Shown here: positions 27,666 through 62,010 of the stretch, one piece after another | How positions within the stretch are numbered: the stretch's first letter is position 1 | Layout of the letters: each line of letters opens with the position of its first letter | IMG/VR virus record: IMGVR_UViG_3300027987_000382 | Span: 82,840 to 146,839 of that record | Origin: a virus | Length of the DNA: 64,000 bases | Direction: 5' to 3' (one strand) | Notes under the pieces: model-generated | Seen by the model: only the letters and a program-made list of their open reading frames with translations | Told to the model about the DNA's origin: nothing | Databases searched by the model: none | Program-made: the position numbers and the translations under genes

Positions 27666-27666
27666 T

Positions 27667-27969
27667 TTGTACTACTACAGAGTCCTCTCAGGACCAACCA
27701 GAGTCGGCGAAGACGAACACGGTGCACGTGTCTCCTGTTTCAATATCTTGCCAGCTGGCGAATCATTAGAAGGAAACGTGCCCATCATCGGATGCGAACT
27801 TGATCTGACGGATCAGCAAGGACTCGCAATCAGGAAGATGATGCAAGAGATTGACGTCTTCTTTGACGATTACATGTACGAGTACAGGGCACAATACCAA
27901 CAAAAAGATGAAGAAGGCAAACTGAAGCGAATCCTCCTTGAGGTCAAGAACGGAATAAAGGTCAGATGA
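27667..27969 (+). CDS. Hypothetical protein
   Basis: TTG start after GGAGG. Confidence 0.5.
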   Translation: MYYYRVLSGPTRVGEDEHGARVSCFNILPAGESLEGNVPIIGCELDLTDQQGLAIRKMMQEIDVFFDDYMYEYRAQYQQKDEEGKLKRILLEVKNGIKVR

Positions 27970-28931: not shown

Positions 28932-29103
28932 GATCATCCCATTCGACACAGAATGCATCCTCTGCGGAAAGCCGTTCATAGAGGCTGAGTCAACTCGTAT
29001 CGACAAATGCCCAGAATGCGTGGCTATCCAAGAAGCAGCAATCAAAAAAGACGTAGACGAATGGCTTGCGAGGCAACAGAATGCTTCTTCCGGTTCTAAC
29101 TGA
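28840..29103 (+). CDS. Small Zn-finger protein (start uncertain)
   Basis: CILCG...CPEC. Confidence 0.4.
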   Translation: MPLNPAKRSKINTRGRISVAQSGENSKSSPEIIPFDTECILCGKPFIEAESTRIDKCPECVAIQEAAIKKDVDEWLARQQNASSGSN

Positions 29104-30160
29104 CAAAATGCATTGTTGGGCTTGGAACCGCATATACGTCAAATCCAACGGCCGAGTCCCCTGCTGGTGTGACGCCGGAGAGATCAAAACAATCTGGCAA
29201 AAAGACTTTGGCGAATCAGACTTCGTCAAAGACCTCGTCAACGGCCCAGAGCTGCGAGAAATGCGGCTCAAAGTCCTCCGCGACCAGCAATACTACATCG
29301 AAGAATGTGGCAGATGTTGCTGCATGATCGAAAAGGGCAAAGGCAGCCACTGGCGGTACCCTGACGGCGATCGCGACATCGACGTCGGCAAAATGAACGA
29401 AACCGCCCTCGGCATCTTGCGACGCGTCGCCAAAGTCAGAAAATGGCCCTACGGCAGCATCGACAAAATCGCCGAAATCCAGCTCGAGCCATCATTCCCA
29501 TGCAATCTTCGCTGCCCAGGTTGTCTTCATGGCTGGCACAGCGACCCAATGAGCACAGAAGAGCGGCCATATTTCTTCCCGCTTGATTGGTTCACCAAAA
29601 TGATCAAATCGATCGTCGTGAACCGCGTCACCCTAAAGCGGATCGCATTCGTAGGACGCGGAGAACCGACGCTCAATAAGCAATTCCCGGTCATGATCGA
29701 TCACGCCAGGAGTCGTATCCCAGAAGTCCTCATGTCCATGGACACCAACAGTAATCAACCATGGAGAGACGAGTACATCTGCCTCAATTGGATAAACTGC
29801 TCTATTGATGGGTCGACACCAGAAGCGTATTCGACCTATCGTCTGCGTGGTCGTTTCGCACCAGCAATCCGATTTATGGAGAACGCTGTAGCCGCAAGAG
29901 ATGCAGCCGGTGATACAACCAACTGCAAGATTCGCTGGAAATACATTCTATTTGACACAACCGAATCAGATGAGCTGCTGAATCGGGCTCAACAGATGGC
30001 GAAGGATATCGGCATCGACGAGCTTGACTTCGTGATCACTACTGTCGGAGCATTCGACAAGACGGTGAATCCAGCCACCAGATTCAAAACCATGGAACAG
30101 TTCAACGAATATCTGACAGGAAATCCGATATTCACAGGATCAATGGTGTCACGATCATGA
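29081..30160 (+). CDS. Radical SAM protein with N-terminal SPASM-like domain
   Basis: CNLRCPGC, GEPTLN, SIDG; N-term C..W...G.V.C.C...C..C. Confidence 0.85.
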   Translation: MLLPVLTDKMHCWAWNRIYVKSNGRVPCWCDAGEIKTIWQKDFGESDFVKDLVNGPELREMRLKVLRDQQYYIEECGRCCCMIEKGKGSHWRYPDGDRDIDVGKMNETALGILRRVAKVRKWPYGSIDKIAEIQLEPSFPCNLRCPGCLHGWHSDPMSTEERPYFFPLDWFTKMIKSIVVNRVTLKRIAFVGRGEPTLNKQFPVMIDHARSRIPEVLMSMDTNSNQPWRDEYICLNWINCSIDGSTPEAYSTYRLRGRFAPAIRFMENAVAARDAAGDTTNCKIRWKYILFDTTESDELLNRAQQMAKDIGIDELDFVITTVGAFDKTVNPATRFKTMEQFNEYLTGNPIFTGSMVSRS

Positions 30161-47010: not shown

Positions 47011-47170
47011 AAAGTACGCGACTCCCCTGGATTACTTCTGAATTTCCCATACGCAACGCATCCACCGTTGCTTATGTGTCGGGACTTTTTTGAATATAGT
47101 CCCGAGATCCCCGATTCAAAAAGTCCGAAGTGTTTTCGTATACCCATCCCGGACTCCGGACTCGACGGGT

Positions 47171-47690
47171 CTGAACCCATGGGGCACCAAAGCACGACAA
47201 TCCGAGCCTAACCCTGCCGCAAAGAGCCCCTAGAGCACCTAACCACAACAAGCACTTCCCGGCGAAACCGCACCTTGCCGCAAAAAGCCCATCGAGCACC
47301 TAACCAACCCACACGGAACCATACCGCACCACGACTAGCAATACCTGAAAAGACCCATCGAGTCCCGAACCCCACCGTCACGTTCCACACCGGAGTTGAC
47401 CATACCCCAGCTAACCGAACCGAGCCGACCCAGAACTAACCAATCCCGTCCGGACTCGACCCTGAAAACCCATAGGGCACCGAAACTTGCCGACACTTGC
47501 AATAGCTTACAATGCAGTGCAAAACACTGGCGTACCGAGACTAACCTCGAGAAAGCCCATAGGGCACCAAAACTCAACCGGACGAGCGAATCCTGGCCGA
47601 ACACAGCCTGGCCGGTAAAAAGCCCATCGGGCTCCCTGCCGTCACTCGACTGGCTCCAACCTAGCCCCTCCGAACCGGACCGACCCCGCC
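47171..47690 (-). ncRNA. Pentamer/hairpin array 1: 7 units of (GGN-NN)n plus 4-bp hairpin
   Basis: Cores at 47176, 47227, 47288, 47354, 47469, 47556, 47623; in-register 5-nt tracts between them. Confidence 0.75.
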
Positions 47691-48065
47691 TGGAGAATCA
47701 AGCCCCTGCAACACACCAGGAGCAAACTGCATCGGATCCCTCACCAAACCCAATACGTGATCAAGAAAATCCGGATCCCCCACCTCAAAGAAATGCGGCC
47801 TCAAATCCAACTCACAACCGCCCTTCCCATTCTCCTGAACCCCAGAAATAATCGCCACAAAATCCCCACCCATAAACTGCAACCGAATCGTCACCGGAAA
47901 CTTATACCGCCGCACCACCTCCAACGCACCCTGATTATGAAACGACGGACATGTCACACTGAACCCATGTGACTTCAACAGACCAGCCACCCCATCCAGG
48001 ATAGCCACCTGCTCCAACCCCAAATCCTCATCCCACCTAGGAAACTTCAGACCCGGTCCCTTCAT
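47661..48065 (-). CDS. Small protein, DP-motif family
   Basis: AILDGVAGLL ... FEVGDPDFLDHV. Confidence 0.6.
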   Translation of the reverse strand: MKGPGLKFPRWDEDLGLEQVAILDGVAGLLKSHGFSVTCPSFHNQGALEVVRRYKFPVTIRLQFMGGDFVAIISGVQENGKGGCELDLRPHFFEVGDPDFLDHVLGLVRDPMQFAPGVLQGLDSPGGVGPVRRG

Positions 48066-48435
48066 CCAAAAACTCCTCCCTCATAGCCTCAGGCACCGCC
48101 AAAAACTCCAGAATCTTCTCAAACGAATCAGGATCAGCAGGATCAACATACAAATGCCCATGCTCCCGTCCCGACGTCGAATTCCGCTCAACCCACACAT
48201 TCCCATTCTCAACATCATGCTGAATCACAGCACCCACATTAAACGTCACACACTCCATCAAGTACCCATCCGGATACAACACCTCCACCGCAGGCCCATG
48301 ATTCACCTCCCGATCCGGCACCCAACGCCCACTAAAATAATCACCATCCCTATGCTCCATGAGCTTATCCGTATACTGCACAATCGGCAGATGAGGCTGC
48401 AAATACTCAGCCACAGCCTTCAAAATAATACTCAT
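48037..48435 (-). CDS. Small protein, DP-motif family
   Basis: MSIILKAVAEYL ... VDPADPDSFEKI. Confidence 0.65.
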   Translation of the reverse strand: MSIILKAVAEYLQPHLPIVQYTDKLMEHRDGDYFSGRWVPDREVNHGPAVEVLYPDGYLMECVTFNVGAVIQHDVENGNVWVERNSTSGREHGHLYVDPADPDSFEKILEFLAVPEAMREEFLDEGTGSEVS

Positions 48436-48680
48436 GACAACAACCACTTCAACAACTTCGGCAGAACAAAACCAACCACCGCACCCAACACCATGAAGAA
48501 AATCAACCGCCGAGCCGCACGATGATTCACCCGATCCACAATATGTTCCATCGTCCTCGCCAACTCCTCCCGCGAAATCTCCTGCGTCACCAACAAATAC
48601 TCCAACTGCACATCCGACACCTCCCCATTCAGGCACCGAATCGCCAATCGAACCACCTCAGGCCGAAATTTCTTGTCCAT
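48432..48680 (-). CDS. Small membrane protein
   Basis: C-terminal TM; ATG lies inside an array hairpin. Confidence 0.55.
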   Translation of the reverse strand: MDKKFRPEVVRLAIRCLNGEVSDVQLEYLLVTQEISREELARTMEHIVDRVNHRAARRLIFFMVLGAVVGFVLPKLLKWLLS

Positions 48681-48808
48681 AGAACACCGAGCGATAACTT
48701 ACCATACCGACCACACTCCAGCCGGACCCCACAGGCCCATAGAGCACCTGACCGTTCCTAACAAAACCTTACCGCTCCCGTCCTTGCCCCACCTGAGCCC
48801 ACCTTGCC
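48675..48808 (-). ncRNA. Pentamer/hairpin array 2: 2 units
   Basis: Cores 48676 and 48736; 12 in-register pentamers 48749-48808 and about 8 at 48689-48728. Confidence 0.75.
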
Positions 48809-48814
48809 TTTGAC

Positions 48815-49117
48815 TCACTTATTCCTCTTACTCATCACAAACTCATACACCGCCTGCAACGACCCAGGATCACACATATCAAACGACCGATCCCCAACCT
48901 GCACATTATCAGGCAACCGATCCCCACCACGACCAACATCACCCGGATCATACTCACTCACCTCACACGTCACCTCCGTCACACCAGTAAAAGCAATCAC
49001 AATCCGCTTCCGACGACGCGGCACATCAATATACGACCCATACAACGTCGCCTGAACCACCCCACGCTCCATGAGATACTCATGAATACACTTCAACAAA
49101 ATCGAATCCTTAGCCAT
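48815..49117 (-). CDS. Small protein, DP-motif family
   Basis: ILLKCIHEYL ... FDMCDPGSLQAV. Confidence 0.65.
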   Translation of the reverse strand: MAKDSILLKCIHEYLMERGVVQATLYGSYIDVPRRRKRIVIAFTGVTEVTCEVSEYDPGDVGRGGDRLPDNVQVGDRSFDMCDPGSLQAVYEFVMSKRNK

Positions 49118-49593
49118 CACAACCACCGCAACGTCAAAACCTTACGACGAACCAACTCCAACGCATCCGGAACCGCCAAATCCACCACATCACACTCCGT
49201 ATCAATCGTCTGAGCATACGGATTCGGATAACGCCCCCGACAAATCTCACACCTGCACACATTCGCCGCCACACCATAATCAAAACTCGAATTCGCCGCA
49301 TGAGCCACCTGCTCAAAATCCTTCGTGCGAAAATGACGAACCACCGCCCTAGGCACATCGTCCAACTGCACATACACCTCCACATACCGCCTCGGCCGCA
49401 TACAACTCACCCAACCAGCATCATCCTTCACCGACAACGGCACATCCCCCTCCACCGCCAAAGACGACCACCCAAAATGCAACACTGAATGAAGACGAAA
49501 CCGCTCATCCGCCTCCCACAGAAAATCATGAATCCCCAAAGCAACCTCTTGCTCGAGGTTGGCCGGAGCCCTCACCTGCCCGATCCTACTCAT
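49117..49593 (-). CDS. Small protein, DP-motif family
   Basis: VALGIHDFL ... VDLAVPDALELV. Confidence 0.6.
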   Translation of the reverse strand: MSRIGQVRAPANLEQEVALGIHDFLWEADERFRLHSVLHFGWSSLAVEGDVPLSVKDDAGWVSCMRPRRYVEVYVQLDDVPRAVVRHFRTKDFEQVAHAANSSFDYGVAANVCRCEICRGRYPNPYAQTIDTECDVVDLAVPDALELVRRKVLTLRWL

Positions 49594-49883
49594 AAGCCCA
49601 AACTCCGATATAACGTATCTGGAAAATCCGGGTCCGCGTAGGGAAACGAATTAGTACAGATATCAATGATGTAAAGACTACACTTATCGGCATAGAACAA
49701 AATCTGCCGATTAAGAGACTGGACTTTGAGCCGGGGATCATCAACCGGCTCCGCCCATTCGATCGTAGCGTAGAGCTGATTCGGTGCATAGACCGACGCT
49801 GGAAGAAAACAACGGACCCCGTGGTACCTCCGCTCAAGGCGGGCAACAACTTCCTTGGCTAGATCATCAATCCACGTTTCCAT
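49590..49883 (-). CDS. Small protein, DP-motif family
   Basis: FPYADPDFPDTL. Confidence 0.6.
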   Translation of the reverse strand: METWIDDLAKEVVARLERRYHGVRCFLPASVYAPNQLYATIEWAEPVDDPRLKVQSLNRQILFYADKCSLYIIDICTNSFPYADPDFPDTLYRSLGL

Positions 49884-50064: not shown

Positions 50065-50132
50065 TGTTGCAAGGGGAATCCCCCCGTTAAATCCGGGTGG
50101 CGGATTTAACGAAACCCCCGCGACCGGCAACA
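50065..50132. promoter_or_regulatory. Divergent promoter motif pair on an inverted repeat
   Basis: Minus copy 50065-50090; plus copy 50106-50132; GTTAAATCCG-N5-CGGATTTAAC. Confidence 0.65.
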
Positions 50133-50163
50133 CCGCCGGTCGCGGGGGGACTCGCAGGTGCGA

Positions 50164-50436
50164 CTAGTCGTCGCTGTCGTCGGCGTCCCCGCCCTTCGCG
50201 GCCTTCTTGGCGGCGATCTCGGCGGCGATCGTGTCCTGTGCGGTCTTCAGGTGCGTCGCGGCGGTCTCCGCGTCGACGCCGGACGCGTCCTGCACGAGCT
50301 TGCTGGCGGAGCGGCGGAGCTGCATGCCGACCAGCGTGCGGGCTTCGTCCTCGGTGTTGGCCATCACGGTGTCGGCGGCGGTCTGCGTCGCACGGACGAT
50401 GGCGGCGAGAAGGGCGGCGAGTTGCTTCTTGTTCAT
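50164..50436 (-). CDS. Small helical protein, MNKKQLA paralog 1
   Basis: AGGAG RBS; promoter 50497-50522. Confidence 0.75.
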   Translation of the reverse strand: MNKKQLAALLAAIVRATQTAADTVMANTEDEARTLVGMQLRRSASKLVQDASGVDAETAATHLKTAQDTIAAEIAAKKAAKGGDADDSDD

Positions 50437-50496
50437 GTCGTGTCTCCTGCGAGAGTTGGGGTTTCGGGGGGCGGCTGTCGCCCCCTCACAATCGGG

Positions 50497-50659
50497 TGTT
50501 GCCGGACGTGTCACCGCGTTAATTCCGGACGCTGCGTCGGTCGCGGCCTGCGTCGGGGTGTTCCGAGTGAGACCAACGAGGGCGGCGACTAGGAGGAGCG
50601 TCGGGAGTGTGGCGGAGTTCGGCATACGGCGGTGTTACGAAAGGGGGCGGCTGGGTTAA
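50497..50659 (-). promoter_or_regulatory. Two promoter motif copies
   Basis: 50497-50522 and 50633-50659. Confidence 0.65.
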
Positions 50660-50747
50660 ACGTCGCCCCCGCGACTCCCAGCCGCCCCCGCAGGAGAACA
50701 AGGAACACGCACGCGTTTGCGGGGGCGACCGCGTGCGTTAAATGCGG

Positions 50748-51503
50748 TCAGGACCAGCGGTCGGCGTCGGTCGCACCGACGAGGTAGTCGGGGTTCTCGG
50801 AGAGAACCTCACGCGTCCGAGCCGCGTTCGGGTAGTCCACGCCGTAGTTGTCGGCACAGGTCTTGCCGCAACCGGCGATCTTCGATTGGACCTGCTCCAG
50901 CTTCGCGTTGCAGTAGCAGCAGTGGCCGGACTGACGCCCGATCTCGGAGATTACGCGGGCTGGGTCGGCTGCAACACGCTGCAGAATCTCGACGACCGAG
51001 GTCCCCGCGACGGACGATCGCGGCTCGAACACGTCCCCGCCGATGTAGCCGTAGAACGCACCTTCGCCGAATCGGGTGGATTGGCTGACGCCGACCGTTC
51101 CCGGTCGCTTGCCGCCTGTGTTGAGCTTGAGAACGACCGTCTGTTCGTTCGGCTCGTCACCGACCGTGAGGACGATCACGGGACGCTTGAGCGTCTGCGT
51201 GGCCGTCTGCATGTGCAGCAGGATCGACTGCATGCCGGGCACGTTCGTGCACGCGTCGCGATTTCCTGCTTGGAAACGCTCTGGGTGGTCCACCTTGGCG
51301 ACGTAGAACGCGGCCCAACTCTCGTGGTACGGCTTCCACGAGCCGTAACGCTGGAAGCCAGCGACCAAGCGTGTGGGGTGGTCGCCCACGATTTCCTGCT
51401 TGGAAATGAGGGCACGCAGGCGGTCGTACAACGCCCGCTGGTTTGGGTGATTGCTCTCGAACGTGCACTCGCCGTGTCGCGAGTTGATGGTGAATTGTGG
51501 CAT
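50748..51503 (-). CDS. DUF6011-like Zn-finger protein
   Basis: GRQSGHCCYCNAKL....S...G.G..CA. Confidence 0.8.
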   Translation of the reverse strand: MPQFTINSRHGECTFESNHPNQRALYDRLRALISKQEIVGDHPTRLVAGFQRYGSWKPYHESWAAFYVAKVDHPERFQAGNRDACTNVPGMQSILLHMQTATQTLKRPVIVLTVGDEPNEQTVVLKLNTGGKRPGTVGVSQSTRFGEGAFYGYIGGDVFEPRSSVAGTSVVEILQRVAADPARVISEIGRQSGHCCYCNAKLEQVQSKIAGCGKTCADNYGVDYPNAARTREVLSENPDYLVGATDADRWS

Positions 51504-51574
51504 CCTCGTACTCCTGCGATTTCCTGCCGGGAAAGGGGGGTGAATGGGATTCGGGGGAATCCCGCCTAGGTCCC

Positions 51575-51600
51575 TGTTGCGAGGGGAATCCCCCCGTTAA
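51575..51600 (-). promoter_or_regulatory. Promoter motif copy
   Basis: 25/26 identical to 50065-50090. Confidence 0.7.
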
Positions 51601-51812
51601 TCGAGCCAGCCGAATCTGCTGTCGAACATGAAGACGCCGATGGTGACGCTCTGCTCGTCCGACTTGACGTCGAGTTCGTCGACGGTCTCATTCGGTCCGG
51701 GGTTTCCGTCCTCGTCGGTGCTGGTAACAGCGTCTTTGCTGCACTGGATGGAGAGGGTGACCGGCAGGTCCGGTCCGGCGAGCAGCTGTCGTGCGAGATC
51801 GTGTGCTTTCAT
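51597..51812 (-). CDS. Small hypothetical protein
   Basis: MKAHDLARQLLAGPDLPV. Confidence 0.6.
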   Translation of the reverse strand: MKAHDLARQLLAGPDLPVTLSIQCSKDAVTSTDEDGNPGPNETVDELDVKSDEQSVTIGVFMFDSRFGWLD

Positions 51813-51899
51813 GGTGACCGTGTGTTGCAAAAGAGAGGAGCGGAGAAAATGAAGCCCCTCCCCGCCCCTTGCGGGGCGGTTCGGGGCGTTCGGGTGCGA

Positions 51900-52166
51900 C
51901 TAGCTCTCGTCGCTGTCGTCGCCGCTCTCGTCGGTCTTCGCGGCTTTCGCCTTGACCGGCGGCTCCTCGATGATGACGTCCTCGACCTCGACGCCCGCTG
52001 CGTCGGCGATCAGGCCCTTGTGTGCCCGGCGGAGTCGCAAGGCGAGCAGGGTGCGGGCCTCGTCCTCGGTGATGGGCGGCTCGCTGTCGGTCGCGTTGCC
52101 GTTGATCGTGGCGGCGACCGAGAGCACCATGGTCTGGACGAGGAAGGCGAGCTGCTTCTTGTTCAT
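51900..52166 (-). CDS. Small helical protein, MNKKQLA paralog 2
   Basis: GGAG RBS; promoter 52228-52253. Confidence 0.75.
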   Translation of the reverse strand: MNKKQLAFLVQTMVLSVAATINGNATDSEPPITEDEARTLLALRLRRAHKGLIADAAGVEVEDVIIEEPPVKAKAAKTDESGDDSDES

Positions 52167-52291
52167 GTCGTGTTCTCCCGAACGAGTCGTGTGGGGCGTG
52201 GCGGAAGTCGCCTCCCCGATACCCACCTGTTGCCGACCGACAGACGGCGTAAAATCCGGGGGATTCAGACCGGCAGGAGAGCCGAGACGCG

Positions 52292-52663
52292 TCAAGACGC
52301 GTCGGAATTGACCGGGGTTCGCCACTTGGCAACAGCTGTTTTGCGGGTCGGCGGCTCGTCACCGAGCATCGCGACAACCTCGCCGACCAGTTGATCCCGG
52401 TTGTTCAGCCCGATGGAGAAGTGAAGATGGGCGATCTGCTTCACACCCGGCTTGATTTCACGAGTGACGGCGACGTGCAACACCTCGCTGTTGTGAGGGC
52501 GATCGAGCATCGCGGCGGTCTCTGACGCGTCCACCTCGAGCATCGGGTGGTTCGGACTCAGGACGAGTTCCAGGGTGTCCGGCACGGTTTGCTCGTTCCA
52601 CTTGGGCGTGGTGCGGGCGACCGGATCGCTGATTCGGGCTTTGCGGTACAGTGAGAGTTTCAT
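52292..52663 (-). CDS. Hypothetical protein
   Basis: 123 aa from ATG 52663. Confidence 0.55.
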   Translation of the reverse strand: MKLSLYRKARISDPVARTTPKWNEQTVPDTLELVLSPNHPMLEVDASETAAMLDRPHNSEVLHVAVTREIKPGVKQIAHLHFSIGLNNRDQLVGEVVAMLGDEPPTRKTAVAKWRTPVNSDAS

Positions 52664-52691
52664 GGTCCCTGGTCCTGTGCTGAGTGTTCCT

Positions 52692-52733
52692 AAGAAAAGC
52701 GGCCCGCCCTCAGCCGTTGCGAGAGCGGGCCGC
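52692..52733 (-). terminator. Intrinsic terminator
   Basis: GCGGCCCGC/GCGGGCCGC stem followed by T tract on minus strand. Confidence 0.6.
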
Positions 52734-53272
52734 GTGTGCCCGTTCGTCCGGGGCGTCACTCCCGGCTTAACGACGCGTCGAGCTAGCCGTACCCAGAATG
52801 CTTCTGCAGGACGATGCCTACCGGACCGGCGAGCTTCACGAGCCGCGTCCGTAATCTGGGCGATCCCGCTCTTTGCCACGGAAGCTGTCGGGACGGGCAG
52901 CCCGTCCAGCCGACGTAGGCGGCGATCGCGATGATGAGAATGAGTCCGTACACGTCTGCGATTTCCTCACTGGAAAGCGTGGGATGGTGAATGGCGGGGC
53001 ATCACCGCCGACTGGCTTGGGTCGTGTTCGATGCCGCCAGCTAGCGTGTGTCGCGGCGGGACGCCCCGCATGCTCGTGTGTGGCCTAACGCTTCATCGTG
53101 TGTCCTCCAATGCGTGTGACTCGCGATTTCCTCACTGGAAAGCGGGGCGACCAATGGCGATCGTGGCTTGTGTTACCCTCGGCCACCAGCCGCCCCTTGC
53201 CCCCATATGTTGCGAGCCGGGGTGGGCGGTTAAATCCGACCGCCCATGCCCCCGATTTCCGCACAGGAAACC

Positions 53273-53644
53273 CTAGAAGGGTACCTCGTCGTCCCACAGG
53301 ACGCCACCGGAGCAGAGCGTGTCGCCGTCCTCGTCGACGAGGATCGTCCCGGCCGTCTCGTCGTCGTGGTGCCGCTCACTGACGATCCGGCAGAGCGTCT
53401 CATCTTCCGGCTGGCACCAGTCCGGATCGAACGCGTCCTCGAACAACTCTGGATCGAGGGGAGCCAGCTCGTCGGGGAAGGCGGACGCCATTTCGCGTCC
53501 GAACGCGTCGTAGCAGTGTTCGTGCATCAGTGATCCCCCATAGTTGACCGTTTTACCGGTCGCGGGCTTGTCGCAATAGGGGCAGTCGGGAGTCACTGTC
53601 TCCGGTCTGCCGTTTTCGTCCGTCCTTGTCGCAAGTGCTGTCAT
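53273..53644 (-). CDS. Acidic Zn-binding hypothetical protein
   Basis: CPYC...H..C, ends DEVPF; promoter 53695-53721. Confidence 0.6.
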   Translation of the reverse strand: MTALATRTDENGRPETVTPDCPYCDKPATGKTVNYGGSLMHEHCYDAFGREMASAFPDELAPLDPELFEDAFDPDWCQPEDETLCRIVSERHHDDETAGTILVDEDGDTLCSGGVLWDDEVPF

Positions 53645-53747
53645 GCCGAAAGTCTCCTGTGCCGTGTTGGCGGGGCCAATTCCCCGCATAGTCTTGTTAC
53701 GGCAATCCCCCACCCCGTTAAACACGGAGCGGGGGATTCCTAAGACA

Positions 53748-53777
53748 GTGCCGGGCACCCTTGCGGGTGCCCGGCAT
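53748..53777. terminator. Strong hairpin after the 53790 gene
   Basis: TGCCGGGCACCC-TTGC-GGGTGCCCGGCA. Confidence 0.6.
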
Positions 53778-53789
53778 CGGCTGCTGCGA

Positions 53790-55022
53790 CTAGCCGCTGT
53801 AGTCACTTCCGGTCATGTTCGCCTTGACCTTCGCGTCGATGTGGAAGTCGGCGAAGTCCTCGAACTTCTCCCGCGTCCCTTCCATGTCGTACTCGGCCGA
53901 GATGAGCGTCCCGACCCACGCGTTCAGCATGCGAGCCGACGTCGGCTCCGAGTAGTGGGTGGCGACCTCGGTCGCGAAGTTGATGGCATCGTAGACCGTG
54001 CACCGGACCGGGAGCGTCCGCTGACGCTTGATGCTGAGAGCATCGAGGTTCGCCAGTCCGTACAGGTGGTTGGTGTCGCCGGTCATCCGGTGGAACGCGG
54101 AGACGATCGGGGAGCCGATCCCCGCCGACTCGTCGTCCAAGTCGGTCTGCGAGACGCCCGCATTCCGGGAATCCTGCAGCCACTCGGTGATGCGGTTGCC
54201 GCGAGCCAGCTGCTTGTCGACGCCGATCAGCCCCTTGTTGTTGTGGAGCTTGATGATCAGCTTGTACAGCTGCGTGGACTCGTTGACGCTGCACCACGAC
54301 TCGGTGGCCGACTCCATTCGCTGCCGGAGAGCCGCGAAGCCCTCGTCGTTGCCGAATCCGTCGAGGGCACGCGTGATCGTCGGCATCACGTCGTCCGCAC
54401 CCTTCCCCAGATTCAGGGACGAGCGGAACGCCTTGGCGTAGCCGATCATGCCGTTCGCACAGATTTGGCGGAGCAGCGAGAGGTAGAAGTTCGGCGTGCC
54501 GTAACCGTCGATCGGCGTGGCCATGACGAACCGGTTCGAGAACGTGTCACCGCAAATGTCGAAGTTCGCGGCTCCGACTCGCGGGGCGTGCGTCGAGTAG
54601 ACCTCGCCGTTGGCGTAGTCGATCGACTGGCCGTTGTACCGATCGAGCGACTCCATCAACTCGTCGTGCTGCACGATCGGCTTGGTGGGATTGCTGACGG
54701 CCATCAGCGTGCTCGTCAGCTTGCCGTTCTCGTCGGTCCGCCGCTCGATGCAGAGCCGCATCCGGTCGGCCTGCTCCACGTTCGAAATCCGCTCGAACGT
54801 CTCGGCGTGGGTGAAGTACTTGAAGAACGCCTTGTTGAACCCGTAGCGGGCGAACAGGGACGTCCAGAAGCGATCGGACGGCTCGAGCGGCTCATCCTTC
54901 ACGATGACGCTCTTCACGATCGGCCGACCGCTCTTCGGATCGCTCTCCGACTCCACGACCAGATCGTTGATCGGCAGGAAGTCGTAGTCGAACCGGACGG
55001 AACTGGGTGTCGCAGCAACCAT
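53790..55022 (-). CDS. DUF932-like protein
   Basis: LLRQICANGM; TVYDAINFATE..TH; promoter 55083-55108. Confidence 0.7.
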   Translation of the reverse strand: MVAATPSSVRFDYDFLPINDLVVESESDPKSGRPIVKSVIVKDEPLEPSDRFWTSLFARYGFNKAFFKYFTHAETFERISNVEQADRMRLCIERRTDENGKLTSTLMAVSNPTKPIVQHDELMESLDRYNGQSIDYANGEVYSTHAPRVGAANFDICGDTFSNRFVMATPIDGYGTPNFYLSLLRQICANGMIGYAKAFRSSLNLGKGADDVMPTITRALDGFGNDEGFAALRQRMESATESWCSVNESTQLYKLIIKLHNNKGLIGVDKQLARGNRITEWLQDSRNAGVSQTDLDDESAGIGSPIVSAFHRMTGDTNHLYGLANLDALSIKRQRTLPVRCTVYDAINFATEVATHYSEPTSARMLNAWVGTLISAEYDMEGTREKFEDFADFHIDAKVKANMTGSDYSG

Positions 55023-55132
55023 GTCTCGTATCTCCAAAAAAGTGGGTGGAAGTGTCACCGGGGCCAATCCCCGATACTCCCCTGTTGCCAGTCCGCAGAC
55101 CGGGTAAAATCCGGGGGATTGGTCGCTGGAGA

Positions 55133-55198
55133 CCCTCCCCCATACCCTCTCCTATCTTCAAATACGTCGAGATCGACGAGAGAGGGTATGGGGGAGGG
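55133..55198. repeat. Perfect 19-bp inverted repeat with nested hairpin
   Basis: CCCTCCCCCATACCCTCTC / GAGAGGGTATGGGGGAGGG. Confidence 0.9.
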
Positions 55199-55247
55199 GC
55201 GAGCCGCCGAATTCGACAGTGACGGCTCGCCCCCAGCACAGGAAGCT

Positions 55248-56468
55248 CTAGAACCGGACGCGTCGCGGACGACCCGCCTTCGCACGATCAGTGACGAATT
55301 TCGGCATCGTCACTTCCGTCGTCGCAATGGCGACTCTCGCCCGATTGTTGATCTCCTGCAGATGCGGATTCACGGTCAACGACCGCCACTCGTCATTCTG
55401 CCAGAGATACTGCTGCTCCGGCATCGCAGTCCGAATCATCGGCCACTTCGTCGCCTTCGACTGGACCACCTGCTTGAACGGCAGAGTCGGGAACTGTCGG
55501 AACACCCGACCGGCCATCTGCATCGTCGGACCCTTGCTGGAATCCCGGACCCACACCGTCTTGAGGCTAGGATCATCGAAACCCTCGGTCAGCACCATGC
55601 AGTTGATCAGCTTGTCCGTCTCACCATTGAGATAAGCCGCCAGCTGCCGCTCCCGGTCACTGTCACCATCCACAATCGGATCGAACGTAGCCATCGCGAT
55701 CGAATCCCGATCACGGCAAGCCCGCTGATACCGCTCGAAATAGCCGCGACGGATCAAAGCATCCCGCAGCAACTGGCACTCATCCTTCGTGAGGAAGTAG
55801 AAGATCGAGCGTCCCCACTTCTCCGGATCGGAGCAGTAGAAATCCGCGACCGTCTCCGCATTCCACTTCGGCAGCGAATAGTGGTGATAACGGGACAGGT
55901 AGCCGTCCTGAATCAGCTGGTGAATCCCCGCATCCTTCACGACGCGATCGAAGCACAGCTTCACCCGGTCTTGGCGGAAGGGAGTCGCGGTGAGTCCGAG
56001 GATCAGATTCGGCTCGATGATGTTGTGCAGGTGAGCCATCGAGTTCGCAGCGTCGTGCTGAGCCTCATCGACGACCATCAGAATCGGCTTGCCGTCCTGA
56101 CGGGCTTGGACGAGATTCTCGGGATTCTTCTCGAACATCGACGTGAACTGGATGCCCGGAATCTTGATGCCGAGCGTATCGTTGGCACGAGCCGCCTGAC
56201 GGAGCAGATCGCGTCGCATCGCGACCCAACCGATCGTCAAATCCGGCATCTGGCTCTTGAGAAGAGCACACGTGACGAAGCCCATCACCGTCTTTCCGCT
56301 GCCGGTGGGACTCTCGATCATCACCGAACGGCACGCCTCAAGCACGGTGCCGTCCCCCTGCATGTACTCGCCACGAAACATGTCGTTGACTTTCGTGCAG
56401 ATCGTTGTCTGGTATGGTCGCGGTTCGATCTTCGTCCCCGCGATCACTGCTGAGATTCGCTTGCTCAT
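55248..56468 (-). CDS. SF2 DExH helicase (ResIII/UvsW-like)
   Basis: RPYQ, SPTGSGKT, VDEAQH, GLTATP.R, LTEGFD.P, QMAGRV.R; promoter 56525-56550. Confidence 0.93.
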   Translation of the reverse strand: MSKRISAVIAGTKIEPRPYQTTICTKVNDMFRGEYMQGDGTVLEACRSVMIESPTGSGKTVMGFVTCALLKSQMPDLTIGWVAMRRDLLRQAARANDTLGIKIPGIQFTSMFEKNPENLVQARQDGKPILMVVDEAQHDAANSMAHLHNIIEPNLILGLTATPFRQDRVKLCFDRVVKDAGIHQLIQDGYLSRYHHYSLPKWNAETVADFYCSDPEKWGRSIFYFLTKDECQLLRDALIRRGYFERYQRACRDRDSIAMATFDPIVDGDSDRERQLAAYLNGETDKLINCMVLTEGFDDPSLKTVWVRDSSKGPTMQMAGRVFRQFPTLPFKQVVQSKATKWPMIRTAMPEQQYLWQNDEWRSLTVNPHLQEINNRARVAIATTEVTMPKFVTDRAKAGRPRRVRF

Positions 56469-56613
56469 GATAACTCCTGTGCTGTCGAGATTTGTCCGAG
56501 GGGCTGTCGTCCCCTACACTCTCCTGTTACGAGCAGCGAATCCGGGTTAATGCTGACCCTCAAATACGCCGCAGGCCGAAGGGGATTCCCAGAATCCCCT
56601 CCGACCGTTAACG

Positions 56614-58104
56614 TCACTTCCACGCCCAATTGAAATCCTTCCGGTGATCCATCACCTTCGCAAACAGATCGGTCAGCTTCCCGGCGTACGCCTCATCGTG
56701 GACATCAAATCCCAGACCGTGAGCGAACTCGTGAACCGCCACCGACAGGATTCGATTCCGCTCGGTCAGCTGGAATCGCCGCTTCCACGACCGGCTGTTC
56801 GAATTCTGCTGCTCCACCAGACTCGCCGGAGCGATCAAATAGGTCCGCCCAAACCGTCCATCCTCGAACTGAGCTTCATCCTCTTCCGAGAACAGGAAGC
56901 CAATCGCGAAATCCGCGTCGTGGTCGAACGTTCGGTGCAGCTGCAGCATCACCCGTCCCCAAATCCGGGCCAGCTTCTGGCTGTAGCTGGAGAAGTCCGG
57001 CTCGTCCGGCCGATAGTAGGTGGGAATCACCAGATCGGTTTCGTTCTTGATCACGAATTCCTCGCTCACCGCAACCCGAACCTCCTCGACGGGAGCCATC
57101 GGAGCGTAGGCTGCCGCCTTCTGTCGCGGACGATCCACGTGTTCCTCGTGGTACTCGGTGGTACCGGTCTGTTCCTCGTGGTCCTCGACCAGATCGATCA
57201 GGACCGACTCGTCCTCGACCGGCTCCGGCTTCTCAATCTGGAGGATTGCCGACGTCTTGACCTCTCGAGCCGAGCGATGGCAGAGCCGCGAGCCGTCATA
57301 GTGGCGGTAACGCTCCTGACGGGGCTTGAGAGCCGATCGCTTGTCGACGGACAACTCGGTGACGAATGTGTCCAATTCCTGCCGCTTCGACCACTTCAAG
57401 CCGTCCCGGTTCGACTGGAGGCATTCCAGGGAGTCTTCGCTCAACTCGACCACGACGCATCGGTCCAACCCGCAGTCGCGGATGAACATCGGCTGTCCGT
57501 TGATCCGGACGACCATCTTGTACTTGGTCGACTTGTTGGTGTAGACGGTGCCGAATCCGAGATCGCGTCGCGGCGATCCCTTCCGCATGTCCGCCTTGTG
57601 GGATTCGCCGTTCCAGTAGAATGTCCCGGACCATTGGCCGTAGAGGACGAACTGGTCGAAAGCCCGCTTGAGAGCCACTTCGTGCTCGCCGTCAATGACG
57701 ATTGTGGACGACGTCCCGCGAGTGTAGCCGTTGTCGACGAGATCGTAGTCGCCGCCGCGTCCCTTGACGCACAGCTCGCCGGAGTGAATCTCATAGGATT
57801 CGTGGCAGAAGTAGAGGATCTCTTTGGCTTTGCCGAATCCGCCGGTGTTCCCTTCCCGCTCGTCCTTGCCGGACGATCCGAGGGAGAGCAGCTTGCCGAT
57901 CAGGACCTCTTCGGTCATTGGCGAGCCGTCATTGGTGACGGTGACGATCGTCTGGCCGTTCTCGATGGCGACGGTCCATTGGATGGTGCGTGAGTCGCAG
58001 TCCATGCCGTTCTGGTTGAACTCGCGGACGATCGCCCAATGCCAGTCGTTGTAGTCGTTCTTGGCTTTGGCGAAGAATTCGGGGCCGATGCTGATTTGCG
58101 GCAT
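56614..58104 (-). CDS. GHKL (HATPase_c) ATPase with C-terminal HExxH motif
   Basis: REFNQNGMD, NDG.PM, GGFG.AK, GT; VHEFAH...H; promoter 58159-58185. Confidence 0.8.
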   Translation of the reverse strand: MPQISIGPEFFAKAKNDYNDWHWAIVREFNQNGMDCDSRTIQWTVAIENGQTIVTVTNDGSPMTEEVLIGKLLSLGSSGKDEREGNTGGFGKAKEILYFCHESYEIHSGELCVKGRGGDYDLVDNGYTRGTSSTIVIDGEHEVALKRAFDQFVLYGQWSGTFYWNGESHKADMRKGSPRRDLGFGTVYTNKSTKYKMVVRINGQPMFIRDCGLDRCVVVELSEDSLECLQSNRDGLKWSKRQELDTFVTELSVDKRSALKPRQERYRHYDGSRLCHRSAREVKTSAILQIEKPEPVEDESVLIDLVEDHEEQTGTTEYHEEHVDRPRQKAAAYAPMAPVEEVRVAVSEEFVIKNETDLVIPTYYRPDEPDFSSYSQKLARIWGRVMLQLHRTFDHDADFAIGFLFSEEDEAQFEDGRFGRTYLIAPASLVEQQNSNSRSWKRRFQLTERNRILSVAVHEFAHGLGFDVHDEAYAGKLTDLFAKVMDHRKDFNWAWK

Positions 58105-58262
58105 GTTGGGCGTCCTGTGCTGGAGGAAAGAATGGGGCTGTCGTCCCCGATACTCTCCTGTTGCGAATCCCCCTTAGCCGGTAAATCTGGGGTACCTGAT
58201 ACGCGAACGGCCCGCCAGATTTCTCTGACGGGCCGTCGCTGTTCGCACTGGTCTGCGGCGAA

Positions 58263-58934
58263 TCAGACCTTCACGTACTGCACGCAACCGGAGCCGATCG
58301 CCTCGCAGACTTGCCGCATCTTCCCGGCGTTCTTCCCGGCGATCAGGGCGAGCCGCTGGAGCACTCCCGGACGGTAGGACCGCTTCACTTCCGCGTCGAG
58401 CAGAGCGTCGGCCTCTTCGTCGTTGATGGTGCCGGTCTCGGTCAACTCAGCCATCGCGGCTTCGATGTGCTTGCCGAGAATGTCCATCACGCCGTCCTTC
58501 GACAGAACGGAGCGGTCGAAACCGAAGACCGTCTCTTCGTAGACCAGCTCGTTCGCACCGTCCTCGCCGAGCAGCTGCGTGAGAGCAGCCAGCGAGTCGT
58601 CTTTCACGCCGTATTGGTTTCGCTCCTGAACCACGAAGGTGACGTTCTCACCCTCGCTGTTCTGGACCTTCATCGGCGTCTCCGGGAACACGCCGCTGTC
58701 GGCGTACTGCTGGTAGAACGAGTCCTTCGCGAAGTTGAGAACGACCGTCTTGTGGACGCCCATCTTGGCGTTGATCGCCTTCACCTGAGCGTTCAACTCG
58801 GTCAACTCGTGCACGGACTTCGCCACCTTGTCGGCATCCGGATTACCGACCGCCCACAACGTCTGCTTCTTCGCGGGTTTCGTCGACGCCGACTTCTCCG
58901 CCTTCTTCGCCGCAGCTTTCGCAAACACGCTCAT
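58263..58934 (-). CDS. Hypothetical protein
   Basis: GGAGG RBS; promoter 58999-59024. Confidence 0.75.
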   Translation of the reverse strand: MSVFAKAAAKKAEKSASTKPAKKQTLWAVGNPDADKVAKSVHELTELNAQVKAINAKMGVHKTVVLNFAKDSFYQQYADSGVFPETPMKVQNSEGENVTFVVQERNQYGVKDDSLAALTQLLGEDGANELVYEETVFGFDRSVLSKDGVMDILGKHIEAAMAELTETGTINDEEADALLDAEVKRSYRPGVLQRLALIAGKNAGKMRQVCEAIGSGCVQYVKV

Positions 58935-59099
58935 GAGAGCACCTCCAAAAGGGAACATAGCTGTCGCTCGCGGCTCACACCGAGCCGCTTCCCCCGCGTG
59001 TTGCGAGACCGGACCTGCCGTAAAATCCGGGGTACCGACCGGCTGCCGCGACCATCCGGGAAAGACGAACGCGTGCGATTGCCGTACCGGGAACCCCCG

Positions 59100-59402
59100 T
59101 TAAATCGGCTCGTCCCAATCCCTCACAGGACCGGTGGTTGGCTTGGTTGCCGCTTCACACTCTGAAATACGGCACGCCATCACCCCTGATTCCTTCCGGA
59201 CGGTATTCCCACTCCCCTGCTCCAGAGCCACAACAAGATCACCCACAGTCCTACAACCGGGGTTCGCCTCCTTGAGCTTCTCGAGCACCTCATCATCATC
59301 GTAGAAATCGTCCATGTCCGCCTGAATGCTCACCACCTGCTCACCGCGTCTCACACGGATTTCAGGATGGTACGCAACAACCTTGCGACCTAGCTTTTCC
59401 AT
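59100..59402 (-). CDS. Hypothetical protein
   Basis: GGAG RBS. Confidence 0.55.
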   Translation of the reverse strand: MEKLGRKVVAYHPEIRVRRGEQVVSIQADMDDFYDDDEVLEKLKEANPGCRTVGDLVVALEQGSGNTVRKESGVMACRISECEAATKPTTGPVRDWDEPI

Positions 59403-59428
59403 TTACCAGACTCCCATATCCTGCAACA
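59402..59428 (+). promoter_or_regulatory. Promoter motif copy
   Basis: TTTAC-N16-GCAACA. Confidence 0.6.
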
Positions 59429-59470
59429 AAAAGGAGGAATCCCCATTCACGTATTTGAGGAACTGACAAC

Positions 59471-60175
59471 ATGCAACTGAAAGTCGAAAGCACCCGGTAC
59501 ATCTTTCCGCCACGGCCACAATCCGCGATGCCGTTCAACGACGTCGTATTCTTCACGGAAGTAGGCTGGGGCTGGCAGTACAAAGTCAACGACAGCCGAT
59601 GCGAGATCAAGTATCTACCAGATGGCAGCGTCGAACTCTGGAACCGACACGCCGAACGATTCCGATCCTACCACTGCCCAGACTGGCTCGAAGACCAACT
59701 CCTCGCAGTCCGCGACCAACTCGGTCTCAGCAGTTCCGAGTACCACCTGCTCGACGGCGGACTCTACGACCAGAAACACGCCGCGATCAAAGACACCATC
59801 GTGATCTGGGACATTCTGGTGCGAGACGGAATGCACCTGCTCGGCACCACCTACAAAGAACGATTCGACAGCATCGCCACCGGCACCACACCCTACAACT
59901 TCAGCCACGAAACCTACGAACACCCCATCCAATTCGGACTCTGCTACGAGGACACCCCCAACGTCTTCCACCTTGAATGGAACCCCTGCGGCGACCCACG
60001 CTCTTGTTGGGACATGGTACACGTCATCAACAAGCCATTCGACGCCAACAGCCCGCTGATCGAAGGAATGGTCTTCAAAGACCCAGACGGACGCCTCGAA
60101 ATGGGCATGAGCGAAAAGAACAACGAAAGTTGGCTCTGCCGGACCAGAGTCAAGACCGGACGTCACCCATTCTAA
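59471..60175 (+). CDS. ATP-dependent ligase/capping-type nucleotidyltransferase, adenylation domain only
   Basis: QYKVNDSR (I), LLDGGL (III), IWDIL (IIIa), EGMVFK (IV). Confidence 0.75.
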   Translation: MQLKVESTRYIFPPRPQSAMPFNDVVFFTEVGWGWQYKVNDSRCEIKYLPDGSVELWNRHAERFRSYHCPDWLEDQLLAVRDQLGLSSSEYHLLDGGLYDQKHAAIKDTIVIWDILVRDGMHLLGTTYKERFDSIATGTTPYNFSHETYEHPIQFGLCYEDTPNVFHLEWNPCGDPRSCWDMVHVINKPFDANSPLIEGMVFKDPDGRLEMGMSEKNNESWLCRTRVKTGRHPF

Positions 60176-60229
60176 CGGAGAACCTCACCACAACCGGGGA
60201 ACAATCCCCAAACCGAACAGGAGGACAAC

Positions 60230-60760
60230 ATGTCCCACACCGCAGAAACAGCCCGCAAAACCGCCAAGAAATCCTGGGCACGGGCAAACCGCCTCGCCGA
60301 ACTCACCGGCCACGAAAAATCCGCCGACTGCCGCACCTACCTCGCGAGCCTGAACGGCACGAGCAATAAGGAGATCCTCGACACCAGCAAAGACGCTCGG
60401 ACCCGAGACATCCGAGAACTCATGGAAGGATTCACCACCTGGTACGAAGGCGGCGGCAGGTCCCTCCACGCCGGAGGCAAAGGCCAAACCCGCCGGAGCA
60501 AGGGCGACACATCCCGCCCACCCAGAGCCGGAGCACCAAATCCCCGTAACGGAACCGCCAAGCGACAATCCAGGGGACATGCCCACATCACCGCCGAGCC
60601 AATCTACCAGCTTCGCAAAATCCAGAAGCAACACGACCTCAGCATCGAAGACCTCGCCCACTGCGTCGAAGTCCTAGGACGCATCGTAGAAAGCCCCCTC
60701 AACGTCGACCAATTCCTCCGAGACGTCAAAGCGGACCGCAAAGCCTCCGCCTCCATCTAA
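60230..60760 (+). CDS. Basic hypothetical protein
   Basis: AGGAGG RBS. Confidence 0.7.
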   Translation: MSHTAETARKTAKKSWARANRLAELTGHEKSADCRTYLASLNGTSNKEILDTSKDARTRDIRELMEGFTTWYEGGGRSLHAGGKGQTRRSKGDTSRPPRAGAPNPRNGTAKRQSRGHAHITAEPIYQLRKIQKQHDLSIEDLAHCVEVLGRIVESPLNVDQFLRDVKADRKASASI

Positions 60761-60780
60761 GACGTCCTCATTTCGGCAGA

Positions 60781-60815
60781 GACGCCCACGGTCGCCAATG
60801 GTGCCCGTGGGCGTT
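60781..60815. terminator. Hairpin between the 60230 gene and array 3
   Basis: GACGCCCACGG-N13-CCGTGGGCGTT. Confidence 0.55.
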
Positions 60816-60825
60816 CTCATAGGTG

Positions 60826-61168
60826 CGATTTCCTCTCAGGAAAGCCCATCGGGCACCAAACCCAACCTAACCACACCTAAACGAACCCTCCGAACCTGTC
60901 CACGTACAACGCGGACCCCTGCGATTTCCTCACAGGAAACCCAGGCCCATCGGACCCCCTACCGAACCGCCCGGAACTGGACTCACCGGACTACGCTCTA
61001 GCCGGAACGATCCCTACCGCTCAAACGCGTACTCGTACGCACAGGACCACGGGCAAACGGGCAGCCGCGATTTCCTCCCAGGAAACCCGTAAGGTCCCAA
61101 TACCGACCGAGGCTTCACTTGACACACCCTGGCGAACCTGTAAACGCCCACGATTTCCTCGGAGGAAA
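60826..61168 (-). ncRNA. Pentamer/hairpin array 3: 3 units bounded by 4 CGATTTCC-N5-GGAAA motifs
   Basis: Cores 60845, 60946, 61086; motifs 60826, 60922, 61068, 61151. Confidence 0.75.
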
Positions 61169-61182
61169 CCACAATACGCTCC

Positions 61183-61208
61183 TGTTGCCAAAAGGCCCCA
61201 CGAGTTAA
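61183..61208 (-). promoter_or_regulatory. Promoter motif pointing into array 3
   Basis: TTAAC-N15-GCAACA-N5-GTAT on minus strand. Confidence 0.7.
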
Positions 61209-61377
61209 GTCCTAACGTGCGAAGAACATACCTCTCCGAGCTTCTCCTTTGGCTTCCCTTGGCCTCTCGCGTGCGGCGGCTCAAAGTCCGGGGGAGAGCT
61301 TTCGGCTTCACTCGGGGCAAAGGAGGTGTCTTTCTGTGGTTCTTTTTGGGTTTTGGTGCTGTTTGCACTGCGAGGAC

Positions 61378-62010
61378 TTATTTACTTTTTGGGCAGGGGT
61401 TATTTGTGAAGATGTCGCCTTCCCATTCGATGAGGATTTGGTGGAGTCTGCCGTTTGGGTGGTTGTTGGTGGCGACGATGGTGAGTTGGGCTGGTTTTCC
61501 GTTTGCTAGGGCTGTTGTTCCTTGGTCGGTGCAGTAGATGCTGAGTTGGTGTTTTTGTGGGGGTTGCCCGGTTTCGTCTATTCCGTCTTTTTGGTTGAGG
61601 ATTTGGGTGATTTTGTTGATGGTTTCTTGGTGGTTGAGTGGTTGGAGTTTTTGGCCTTCTGTGCTGAGGGCGAGCCAGATTTGGTGGGCTGTTTGGGCGT
61701 TGTGTTTGATTGTGGCGAGTCGGTTTTTGAGTTGGTTGGTGTGGGATTCTGTGTAGCCGCCGTGTTTGATGATTTGGTGGAGTTCGTCGGTGTTGCGTTC
61801 TTCGATGATGGTGGTGTGGTCGAGGATGCAGTCGGCTCTTTGTTGGGCGAGTTGTGCTGTTGGGTAGATTGCGTGGTTTGGGAAGTCGGGGTGGCTTTGG
61901 ATTCTTGGGTGTGAGTGGGCGATGGTCCAGGTGTAGTTTGGTTCGTTTTGTTCGTCCCATTCGTCGTTGTAGTCGGCGAGGACTGTGTGGGCGGTTTCGT
62001 TTGTTGTCAT
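61378..62010 (-). CDS. Hypothetical protein
   Basis: ATGA-coupled, 210 aa. Confidence 0.6.
   Translation of the reverse strand: MTTNETAHTVLADYNDEWDEQNEPNYTWTIAHSHPRIQSHPDFPNHAIYPTAQLAQQRADCILDHTTIIEERNTDELHQIIKHGGYTESHTNQLKNRLATIKHNAQTAHQIWLALSTEGQKLQPLNHQETINKITQILNQKDGIDETGQPPQKHQLSIYCTDQGTTALANGKPAQLTIVATNNHPNGRLHQILIEWEGDIFTNNPCPKSK

Follow-up and report, generated by a model that had tools for sequence, protein, structure and literature searches.

Array 3 is a locus on the minus strand of the stretch of viral DNA analysed here (64 kb, called the window throughout) in which a promoter motif is followed by four exact copies of a short palindromic element, hp2, that bracket three units, and then by a strong hairpin (Table 1). 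We consider it probable that transcription from this promoter yields a non-coding RNA, about 385 nt long, that contains three vrRNA-like guides delimited by hp2. Judged by its sequence features, the locus is best filed as a VIPR-type guide array punctuated by repeat hairpins, a layout that would be new.

VIPR systems were described in 2026 and have been proposed as the viral ancestor of CRISPR; their guide RNAs (vrRNAs) consist of 9-16 YNNGG repeats and an invariant structured 3' tail, the GGY bases being held by the Vipr protein while the NN bases read DNA with a one-base skip (bioRxiv 10.64898/2026.04.26.720920, 10.64898/2026.04.26.720927). Carried over to Array 3, a phage-type promoter, found also at about nine leftward genes in a GC-rich module, would give a primary transcript of about 385 nt, in which each guide would comprise a 5-nt-periodic GGY/NN tract and a short conserved tail hairpin. 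hp2 most likely marks where one unit ends and the next begins, serving for processing or for the binding of a protein, and the mature guides would load a Vipr-type (RAMP-like) protein and bring it to competitor dsDNA via the NN dinucleotides. The Vipr-type protein itself would be encoded in the missing 59% of the genome or be supplied by another element. If this is true, a guide array with a short palindromic hairpin repeat between its units would be new, and it would illustrate a route by which guide units gain repeat boundaries, as in CRISPR, from a repeat common to the gene-expression signals of the phage; in addition, huge environmental phages would join the carriers of VIPR-like guides. 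The promoter motif and hp2 are two testable cis-elements of an uncultured phage lineage.

The window is the end segment of a 146,839-bp IMG/VR record (G000) with a CheckV completeness of 41%. Two complete relatives, G001 (355,825 bp, terminal repeats, 34% GC) and G002 (408,349 bp, 43% GC), have many proteins in common with G000, in syntenic order and at 35-68% identity, and a fourth phage with hp2, L184, was found on a 228-kb contig; the four form one lineage of huge phages. At the nucleotide level, megablast with the region 50-62 kb found nothing matching in the phage collection.

Table 1. Positions of the elements of Array 3 and of the two other periodic arrays in the window.
Feature	Positions	Strand	Remarks
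Phage promoter motif	61171..61208	-	TTAAC 61208-61204; GCAACA 61188-61183; -10-like TATTGT 61176-61171
hp2-4 (TTTCCTCCGAGGAAATCG)	61151..61168	-	first bracket hairpin; overlaps inferred transcription start
Unit u3, 65 nt	61086..61150	-	degenerate GGYNN-periodic tract; tail hairpin ACCT-TAC-GGGT 61095-61085
hp2-3 (TTTCCTGGGAGGAAATCG)	61068..61085	-	-10.1 kcal/mol with flanks
Unit u2, 128 nt	60940..61067	-	structured 5' part, then degenerate GGYNN tract, then tail hairpin GTCC-GAT-GGGC 60955-60945
hp2-2 (TTTCCTGTGAGGAAATCG)	60922..60939	-	-13.8 kcal/mol, z -3.6
Unit u1, 78 nt	60844..60921	-	best-preserved guide-like tract; tail hairpin GCCC-GAT-GGGC 60854-60844
hp2-1 (TTTCCTGAGAGGAAATCG)	60826..60843	-	last bracket hairpin
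Strong hairpin	60781..60815	.	9-10 bp core stem; between Array 3 and convergent gene 60230-60760
Array 1	47169..47711	-	7 units, tail hairpin as in Array 3, without hp2
Array 2	48675..48823	-	2 units, tail hairpin as in Array 3, without hp2

Promoter motif, predicted transcript and terminal hairpin

The preliminary description of this locus had proposed three units, each bracketed by CGATTTCC-N5-GGAAA (plus strand), under a consensus phage promoter pointing left into them. Both elements were recovered: the brackets are exact copies at 60826, 60922, 61068 and 61151, with hp2-to-hp2 spacings of 83, 146 and 96 nt around units of 65, 128 and 78 nt, and the promoter is the rightmost of ten co-oriented copies of a motif, TTWAC-N13-18-GYAACA[GC], all of which lie on the minus strand within 50090-61208 (three plus-strand copies in the whole record; shuffles 0.76). 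In full, the motif reads TTWAC, about 15 nt, GCAACAGG, 4 nt and TAT(C/T)GG. We take it to be a promoter because its copies lie some tens of nucleotides upstream of minus-strand ORF starts and because its last element in the AT-richer G002 is TAGAAT or TACAAT, a good -10. The common motif also lends support to the proposed co-regulation of Array 3 with the genes at 50-59 kb. In this region, a 936-aa plus-strand ORF (53643-56453) is probably spurious, since the minus strand opposite to it carries two genes that are conserved in both G001 and G002, encoding a 425-aa protein and a 406-aa ResIII/SF2 helicase, each of which follows a copy of the motif.

The position of the motif would place the start of Array 3 near 61165, and a leftward transcript from about 61165 to 60781 would measure about 385 nt, so that the geometry fits the earlier proposal of a precursor RNA of about 350-400 nt, which is plausible; the predicted start falls, however, inside the first hp2. 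If the -10 is TATTGT, hp2-4 may not form in the RNA, and this first bracket may then have a role only as DNA or as a half-site.

The hairpin proposed as the end of the transcript was confirmed. The sequence 60781-60815 folds strongly on both strands (-26.7 kcal/mol, z -4.5 on the minus strand; -30.5 kcal/mol, z -5.3 on the plus strand), but its minus strand lacks a U-tract and a terminator scan called no canonical terminator-like site there. It lies 20 nt past the stop codon (60760) of the convergent plus-strand gene 60230-60760 and is probably a two-way terminator. This gene encodes a 176-aa protein with no credible Pfam match; on the other side of Array 3, the neighbouring minus-strand gene has its stop at 61378. 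Further left, the product of the plus-strand gene 59471-60175 has 234 aa, matches the Pfam ATP-dependent DNA ligase domain weakly (E 0.013) and has conserved counterparts in G001 (35% identity) and in G002 (66% identity).

Periodic units with a common tail hairpin

On the minus strand, the spacers of Array 3 are G/T-rich and follow a 5-nt register. Fourier power of G at period 5 was compared with dinucleotide-preserving shuffles (about 0.26) and amounted to 1.64 in u3, 1.47 in u2 and 1.84 in u1 (p = 0.0015, 0.0045 and 0.001, respectively). The signal was absent from the 66 nt past the last hp2, from the promoter region and from the spacers of the two other hp2 clusters. The tract of u1 contains five perfect GGYNN units in a row (GGTGT GGTTA GGTTG GGTTT GGTGC), the longest such run in the window, and 7 of its 14 units are GGY in one register. 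The longest perfect GGYNN run in u2 and u3 is one, and their best register holds no more than 4-5 GGY units; u3 has G at position 1 in 10 of 12 units. Under the published rule for calling vrRNAs (at least four YNNGG units), u1 is long enough, whereas u2 and u3 taken alone fall short of the strict rule.

Straight after the last GGT, each unit closes with the same tail hairpin, GYYC-NAN-GRGY, with a 4-bp stem and a 3-nt loop (GCCC-GAU-GGGC and variants). This hairpin closes 12 units in total, three in Array 3, seven in Array 1 and two in Array 2, so that a conserved structured 3' tail, as in vrRNAs, is present throughout the three arrays; outside Array 3, strong 5-nt periodicity was seen in the record at Arrays 1 and 2 only. 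Pairing is kept in 48 of 48 cells across the 12 units, including three double compensations (GC to AU, CG to UA), and no more than 14 of 500 shuffles matched these values. Read from the opposite strand, the U-G pairs would turn into A-C mismatches, which favours the minus strand, and the pairing gives modest but consistent support for a minus-strand RNA. The strand had previously been deduced from G-U pairs, in agreement with the promoter direction; both are consistent with the compensations and with the GGY periodicity.

It had also been stated that no credible ORF or ribosome-binding site lies inside Array 3. As worded, this needs amending: four short ORFs overlap the locus (minus strand 61014-61172, 52 aa; 61021-61368, 115 aa; and 60674-60820, 48 aa; plus strand 60798-61001, 67 aa), an SD-like GAGGA is present in each hp2, an ATG lies 8 nt past hp2-1 and a GTG directly past hp2-4. 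What speaks for the statement is that the units are periodic in 5 and not in 3 nt, the power at period 3 being 0.1-0.2 as compared with 1.5-1.8 at period 5. If Array 3 encoded one or more small peptides, with hp2 as a ribosome-binding hairpin, one would understand why hp2 holds GAGGA and stands 0-14 nt before the starts of ORFs of at least 60 aa in the relatives and the window, as well as why the 48-aa ATG ORF and a GTG frame begin so close behind hp2-1 and hp2-4. Besides the missing 3-nt periodicity, however, neither hp2-3 nor hp2-2 is followed by a start codon at a suitable distance, the 48-aa ORF crosses the terminator hairpin and continues antisense to a gene, and the sole tblastn match in a relative comprises 48 residues (E 8e-5) in a part of G002 that resembles a leader and is apparently non-coding. 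The composition of this A-poor strand makes stop codons rare, so long frames are expected there. Altogether, we regard a peptide-coding role as very improbable.

hp2, a separate element of the phage lineage

As RNA, hp2 reads UUUCC-N5-GGAAAUCG (TTTCC-N5-GGAAATCG on the minus strand of the DNA); 18 nt are conserved, and the core is a perfect palindrome with a fixed 5-bp spacing. Ten exact copies are present in the window, all on one strand and in three clusters, which comprise, in addition to the four copies in Array 3, those at plus-strand positions 51259, 51389 and 51517 and those at 52959, 53124 and 53253; the 147-kb record contains no copy elsewhere. With up to two mismatches, 22 matches were found in the window as compared with 2.5 expected. 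Within Array 3, the element folds into a stem of 6-8 bp with a 3-nt loop (-7 to -14 kcal/mol). hp2 pairs at other spacings were sought in IMG/VR and none were found, and a search for hp2 pairs in bacterial genomes returned two matches, one a coding tandem repeat and the other a palindrome pair.

hp2 is a separate element whose occurrence is not confined to guide arrays. The relatives G001, G002 and L184, in which strong GGYNN arrays are absent, have it conserved as well, and wherever the gene context was read (in G000, G002 and L184) its orientation is sense to the genes. About one quarter to one third of the copies stand 0-14 nt upstream of the start of an ORF with 60 aa or more; hp2 is also located after stop codons, in 5' leaders and inside a coding sequence. 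The second cluster of the window occupies a 390-nt gap without an ORF of at least 100 aa (52880-53272), which contains its three hp2 copies and a degenerate copy of the promoter motif and shows no 5-nt periodicity; a GTG follows 5 nt after the last of these copies, and the frame that it opens begins, as read by hand, with a hydrophobic, membrane-helix-like stretch.

The copies inside a coding sequence lie in a conserved minus-strand gene for a 251-aa protein (50748-51503), where hp2 at 51259-51276 and 51389-51406 encodes two predicted loops in two reading frames. The 18-mer is identical in G000 and G002 (counterpart at 194085), the proteins being 54% identical. Database homologues of the protein have RFQAGNR, RFQQGNR and similar sequences at the hp2 loop and, in two cases, RF-SKQEIA, which, going by the protein sequences of the homologues, would correspond to the other frame of the hp2 18-mer; one homologue has two hp2-loop copies. 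Retention of the 18-mer in differing frames suggests that a nucleic-acid element is maintained inside this gene, and hp2 is accordingly taken to be selected as nucleic acid; it is also a directional element. The 251-aa protein itself gave a confident model (pLDDT 91.5) without a structural match (best VIA Z 5.0); an assignment as RNase III was discarded, the corresponding Foldseek rows being noise (E 0.1, TM 0.15).

The arms of hp2 are invariant and show no covariation, which argues for sequence-specific recognition by a protein over mere pairing. Such recognition might take place on DNA, with the hp2 sites, located at and behind a promoter, serving as four operators for a dimeric phage regulator (titration or autoregulation) and the spacers being filler or relict. 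The perfect palindrome with its fixed 5-bp spacing and invariant arms would suit this function, as would the overlap of hp2-4 with the predicted start site; in addition, two L184 copies of hp2 are symmetric on both flanks, and a similar TTTCC...GGAAA palindrome pair occurs on a Coriobacteriaceae MAG contig, which is unrelated, in a stretch that looks non-coding. The flank of hp2 is nevertheless one-sided in the window (ATCG on the same side in 10 of 10 copies), and this fits, together with the sense orientation, an RNA or a directional element. Operators also leave the 5-nt periodicity of all three spacers and the conserved tail hairpins unexplained, and we consider them a distinctly unlikely function of the locus.

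Guides delimited by hp2 remain our preferred reading. It can be taken one step further by supposing that hp2 is a true processing repeat: a hairpin-specific protein of the lineage would bind or cut UUUCC-N5-GGAAAUCG both in early mRNAs and between the guides. In these phages of 350-400 kb, Array 3 would then represent a VIPR array with the order repeat-guide-repeat, a form halfway from vrRNA arrays without repeats to CRISPR arrays. We rate this extension as rather unlikely.

The resemblance to CRISPR lies in the order repeat-guide-repeat with one more repeat than guides, in a leader promoter on one side and in hp2 itself, which, with its short-looped stem of 5-6 bp and conserved 3' flank, is similar to hairpin CRISPR repeats of the Cas6-type, RAMP-processed kind. 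However, hp2 has only 18 nt as compared with about 23-50 nt in the near-identical CRISPR repeats, it also occurs singly beside ordinary genes, and the 'spacers' are unequal (65-128 nt) and internally periodic instead of unique and uniform in length. No cas genes were seen in 47-64 kb and no Cas family was among the Pfam matches. With only 18 nt conserved, spacings of 83, 146 and 96 nt and no Cas family, an assignment as a CRISPR array was rejected. The ideas of an N4-type hairpin promoter and of a Cas12-type repeat were likewise dropped, on the grounds of gene strand, a separate promoter motif and the periodicity.

As an RNA of about 390 nt with repeated hairpins, Array 3 also resembles CsrB, and it could in principle act as a sponge for a CsrA-like protein of the phage, as CsrB or RsmZ do. 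GGA is, however, not enriched (9 as compared with 8.4 expected), with a single A-N-GGA, and no Rfam family matches; a CsrB/Rsm-type sponge was therefore rejected and appears to us barely conceivable. The Rfam search, which also covered the hammerhead ribozymes known from ribozyme-interspersed vrRNA arrays, found nothing in the window that reached the gathering threshold and only chance-level matches (E of at least 1) in 60600-61400, and a tRNA scan of the window found nothing.

Cassettes of promoter and hairpin have a precedent in the PeSLs of T4-type phages, repeated promoter and stem-loop modules that flank single genes in a hyperplastic region, and homologous copies of which lie at different places in relatives, as is the case here. 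The PeSL motifs are unrelated in sequence to the promoter and hp2 of Array 3. PeSLs flank protein genes, and we know of none that bracket periodic guide-like RNAs.

Likeness to VIPR and distribution in the lineage

Published vrRNA arrays are intergenic in phages and are plain, staggered, hammerhead-interspersed or single, and vrRNAs are often internally degenerate and are expressed as small RNAs of about 100 nt that are purified together with Vipr (bioRxiv 10.64898/2026.04.26.720920, 10.64898/2026.04.26.720927). Array 3 is closest to the type II VIPR system of Escherichia phage SUSP1: both are phage-borne and intergenic, with several units in a row on one strand, and both have tandem GGY/NN pentanucleotide tracts leading into a conserved structured 3' element in units of about 80-150 nt. 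At the SUSP1 locus (KT454805.2, 27.5-29.5 kb) we found that the GGY-NN tracts are clean, that the tail is of the pseudoknot type and that every unit is preceded by a conserved hairpin. Array 3 differs in having a minimal 4-bp tail hairpin, tracts that are shorter and more degenerate than the 9-16 clean repeats of VIPR, and units separated by palindromic hp2, an array form absent from the list in the VIPR paper; moreover, neither vipr nor vap, the accessory gene for a DNA-binding protein or nuclease that stands beside vipr, was found with it. The hairpin-forming element ahead of each SUSP1 vrRNA (27500-28031 and 29062-29520) comes in addition to the published 3' tail, and it shows that structures bracketing vrRNA units are not unique to Array 3.

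Orphan vrRNAs without vipr have been reported in satellites and in 346 phages (bioRxiv 10.64898/2026.10.15.759431). Like these solo vrRNAs, Array 3 has guide-like units with no cognate vipr nearby, on a mobile element engaged in inter-element conflict. The solo vrRNAs described, however, have retained the tail of their partner phage, which is known and Vipr-positive, whereas Array 3 has no known partner system, and its genome is incomplete, so that 'orphan' is here indistinguishable from 'effector not yet sequenced'.

Vipr was searched for in the three genomes. Neither phmmer with the SUSP1 Vipr nor hmmsearch with an HMM of 120 homologues found anything in G000, G001 or G002, and hhalign against Vipr gave nothing in 262 of 425 G000 ORFs (100-400 aa) or in all 116 ORFs (80-450 aa) beyond 128000; the profile represents type II, one of seven Vipr types, and G000 covers 41% of the genome. 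A regular expression for the C-terminal glycine loop of Vipr likewise found nothing. Targets of the NN dinucleotides were sought under the 1-nt skip rule with clean blocks of 5 and 7 NN pairs, and the best matches in G000, G001 and G002 equalled those of shuffled-order controls; outside its tail hairpin u1 offers at most 6 NN pairs (12 specified bases), and a scan of the collection needs 14. When IMG/VR was searched with the double tail-hairpin pattern, the 112 matches obtained were close to the chance estimate and none had a GGYNN tract; a relative with the architecture of Array 3 was not found in IMG/VR.

The syntenic site in G002, after the gene for the 176-aa protein, has a terminator hairpin and one hp2 and nothing more, which makes Array 3 accessory. 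Just upstream of the Array 3 promoter, the DNA at about 61230-61270 is homologous to a G002 leader at 197.5 kb in which two hp2 copies stand ahead of an ORF, and Array 3 therefore looks like guide units placed inside one of the promoter/hp2 cassettes of the lineage. The homology of the leader 61209-61377 extends over 197.4-197.7 kb in G002, a different genomic place, where the transcribed strand appears by eye to switch from C/A-rich to G/T-rich.

Array 3 could be a decaying remnant, with former vrRNA units that were acquired through shuffling of promoter and hairpin cassettes and are no longer functional, be they transcribed or not: the register shifts and GGY is poorly conserved in u2 and u3, no Vipr was found, the array is absent from the relatives, and the GC-rich module looks like a set of shuffled promoter-hairpin cassettes with homologous parts elsewhere in G002. 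Against decay stand the tail hairpins, which are intact in three of three units, one of them as a compensated variant, and the hp2 copies, of which four of four are exact. By the same measures, the units of Array 3 are no more degenerate than those of Arrays 1 and 2, so degeneracy may be the norm of the system, and it is frequent in vrRNAs according to the VIPR paper. We therefore find a remnant improbable and retain functional guides delimited by hp2 as the more fitting description.

Five small paralogues of 97-158 aa with a C-terminal DPxF...L motif are encoded on the minus strand at 47661-49883, interleaved with Arrays 1 and 2. The family has no match in G001 and two weak tblastn matches in G002; its 134-aa member has only two database homologues, and for the 158-aa neighbour of Array 2 not a single homologue turned up. 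Folded with few homologues, the 134-aa paralogue gave an alpha-beta5-alpha model (pLDDT 76) that came closest (Z 8-9) to Mediator, an Rhs immunity protein and type III secretion chaperones; the structural matches listed included no RAMP-like chain. Going by this model, the predicted fold of the five proteins resembles that of immunity proteins and secretion chaperones.

DNA near-identical to that of G000 is present in an independent 2025 metagenome, and a candidate source run is labelled as hydrothermal vent metagenome. No sequence variation was seen inside Array 3 in a second DNA sample (run X3), of which one contig is identical over 60543-61160. On the RNA side, the region was touched only by assembled contigs of one small metatranscriptome, which carry no start, end or strand information; one RNA-library contig spans 60524-60771. 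Another, from sediment (RNA run X6), aligns up to 61086, the edge of hp2-3, and continues into unrelated sequence; its source may be a related phage with hp2 in another context.
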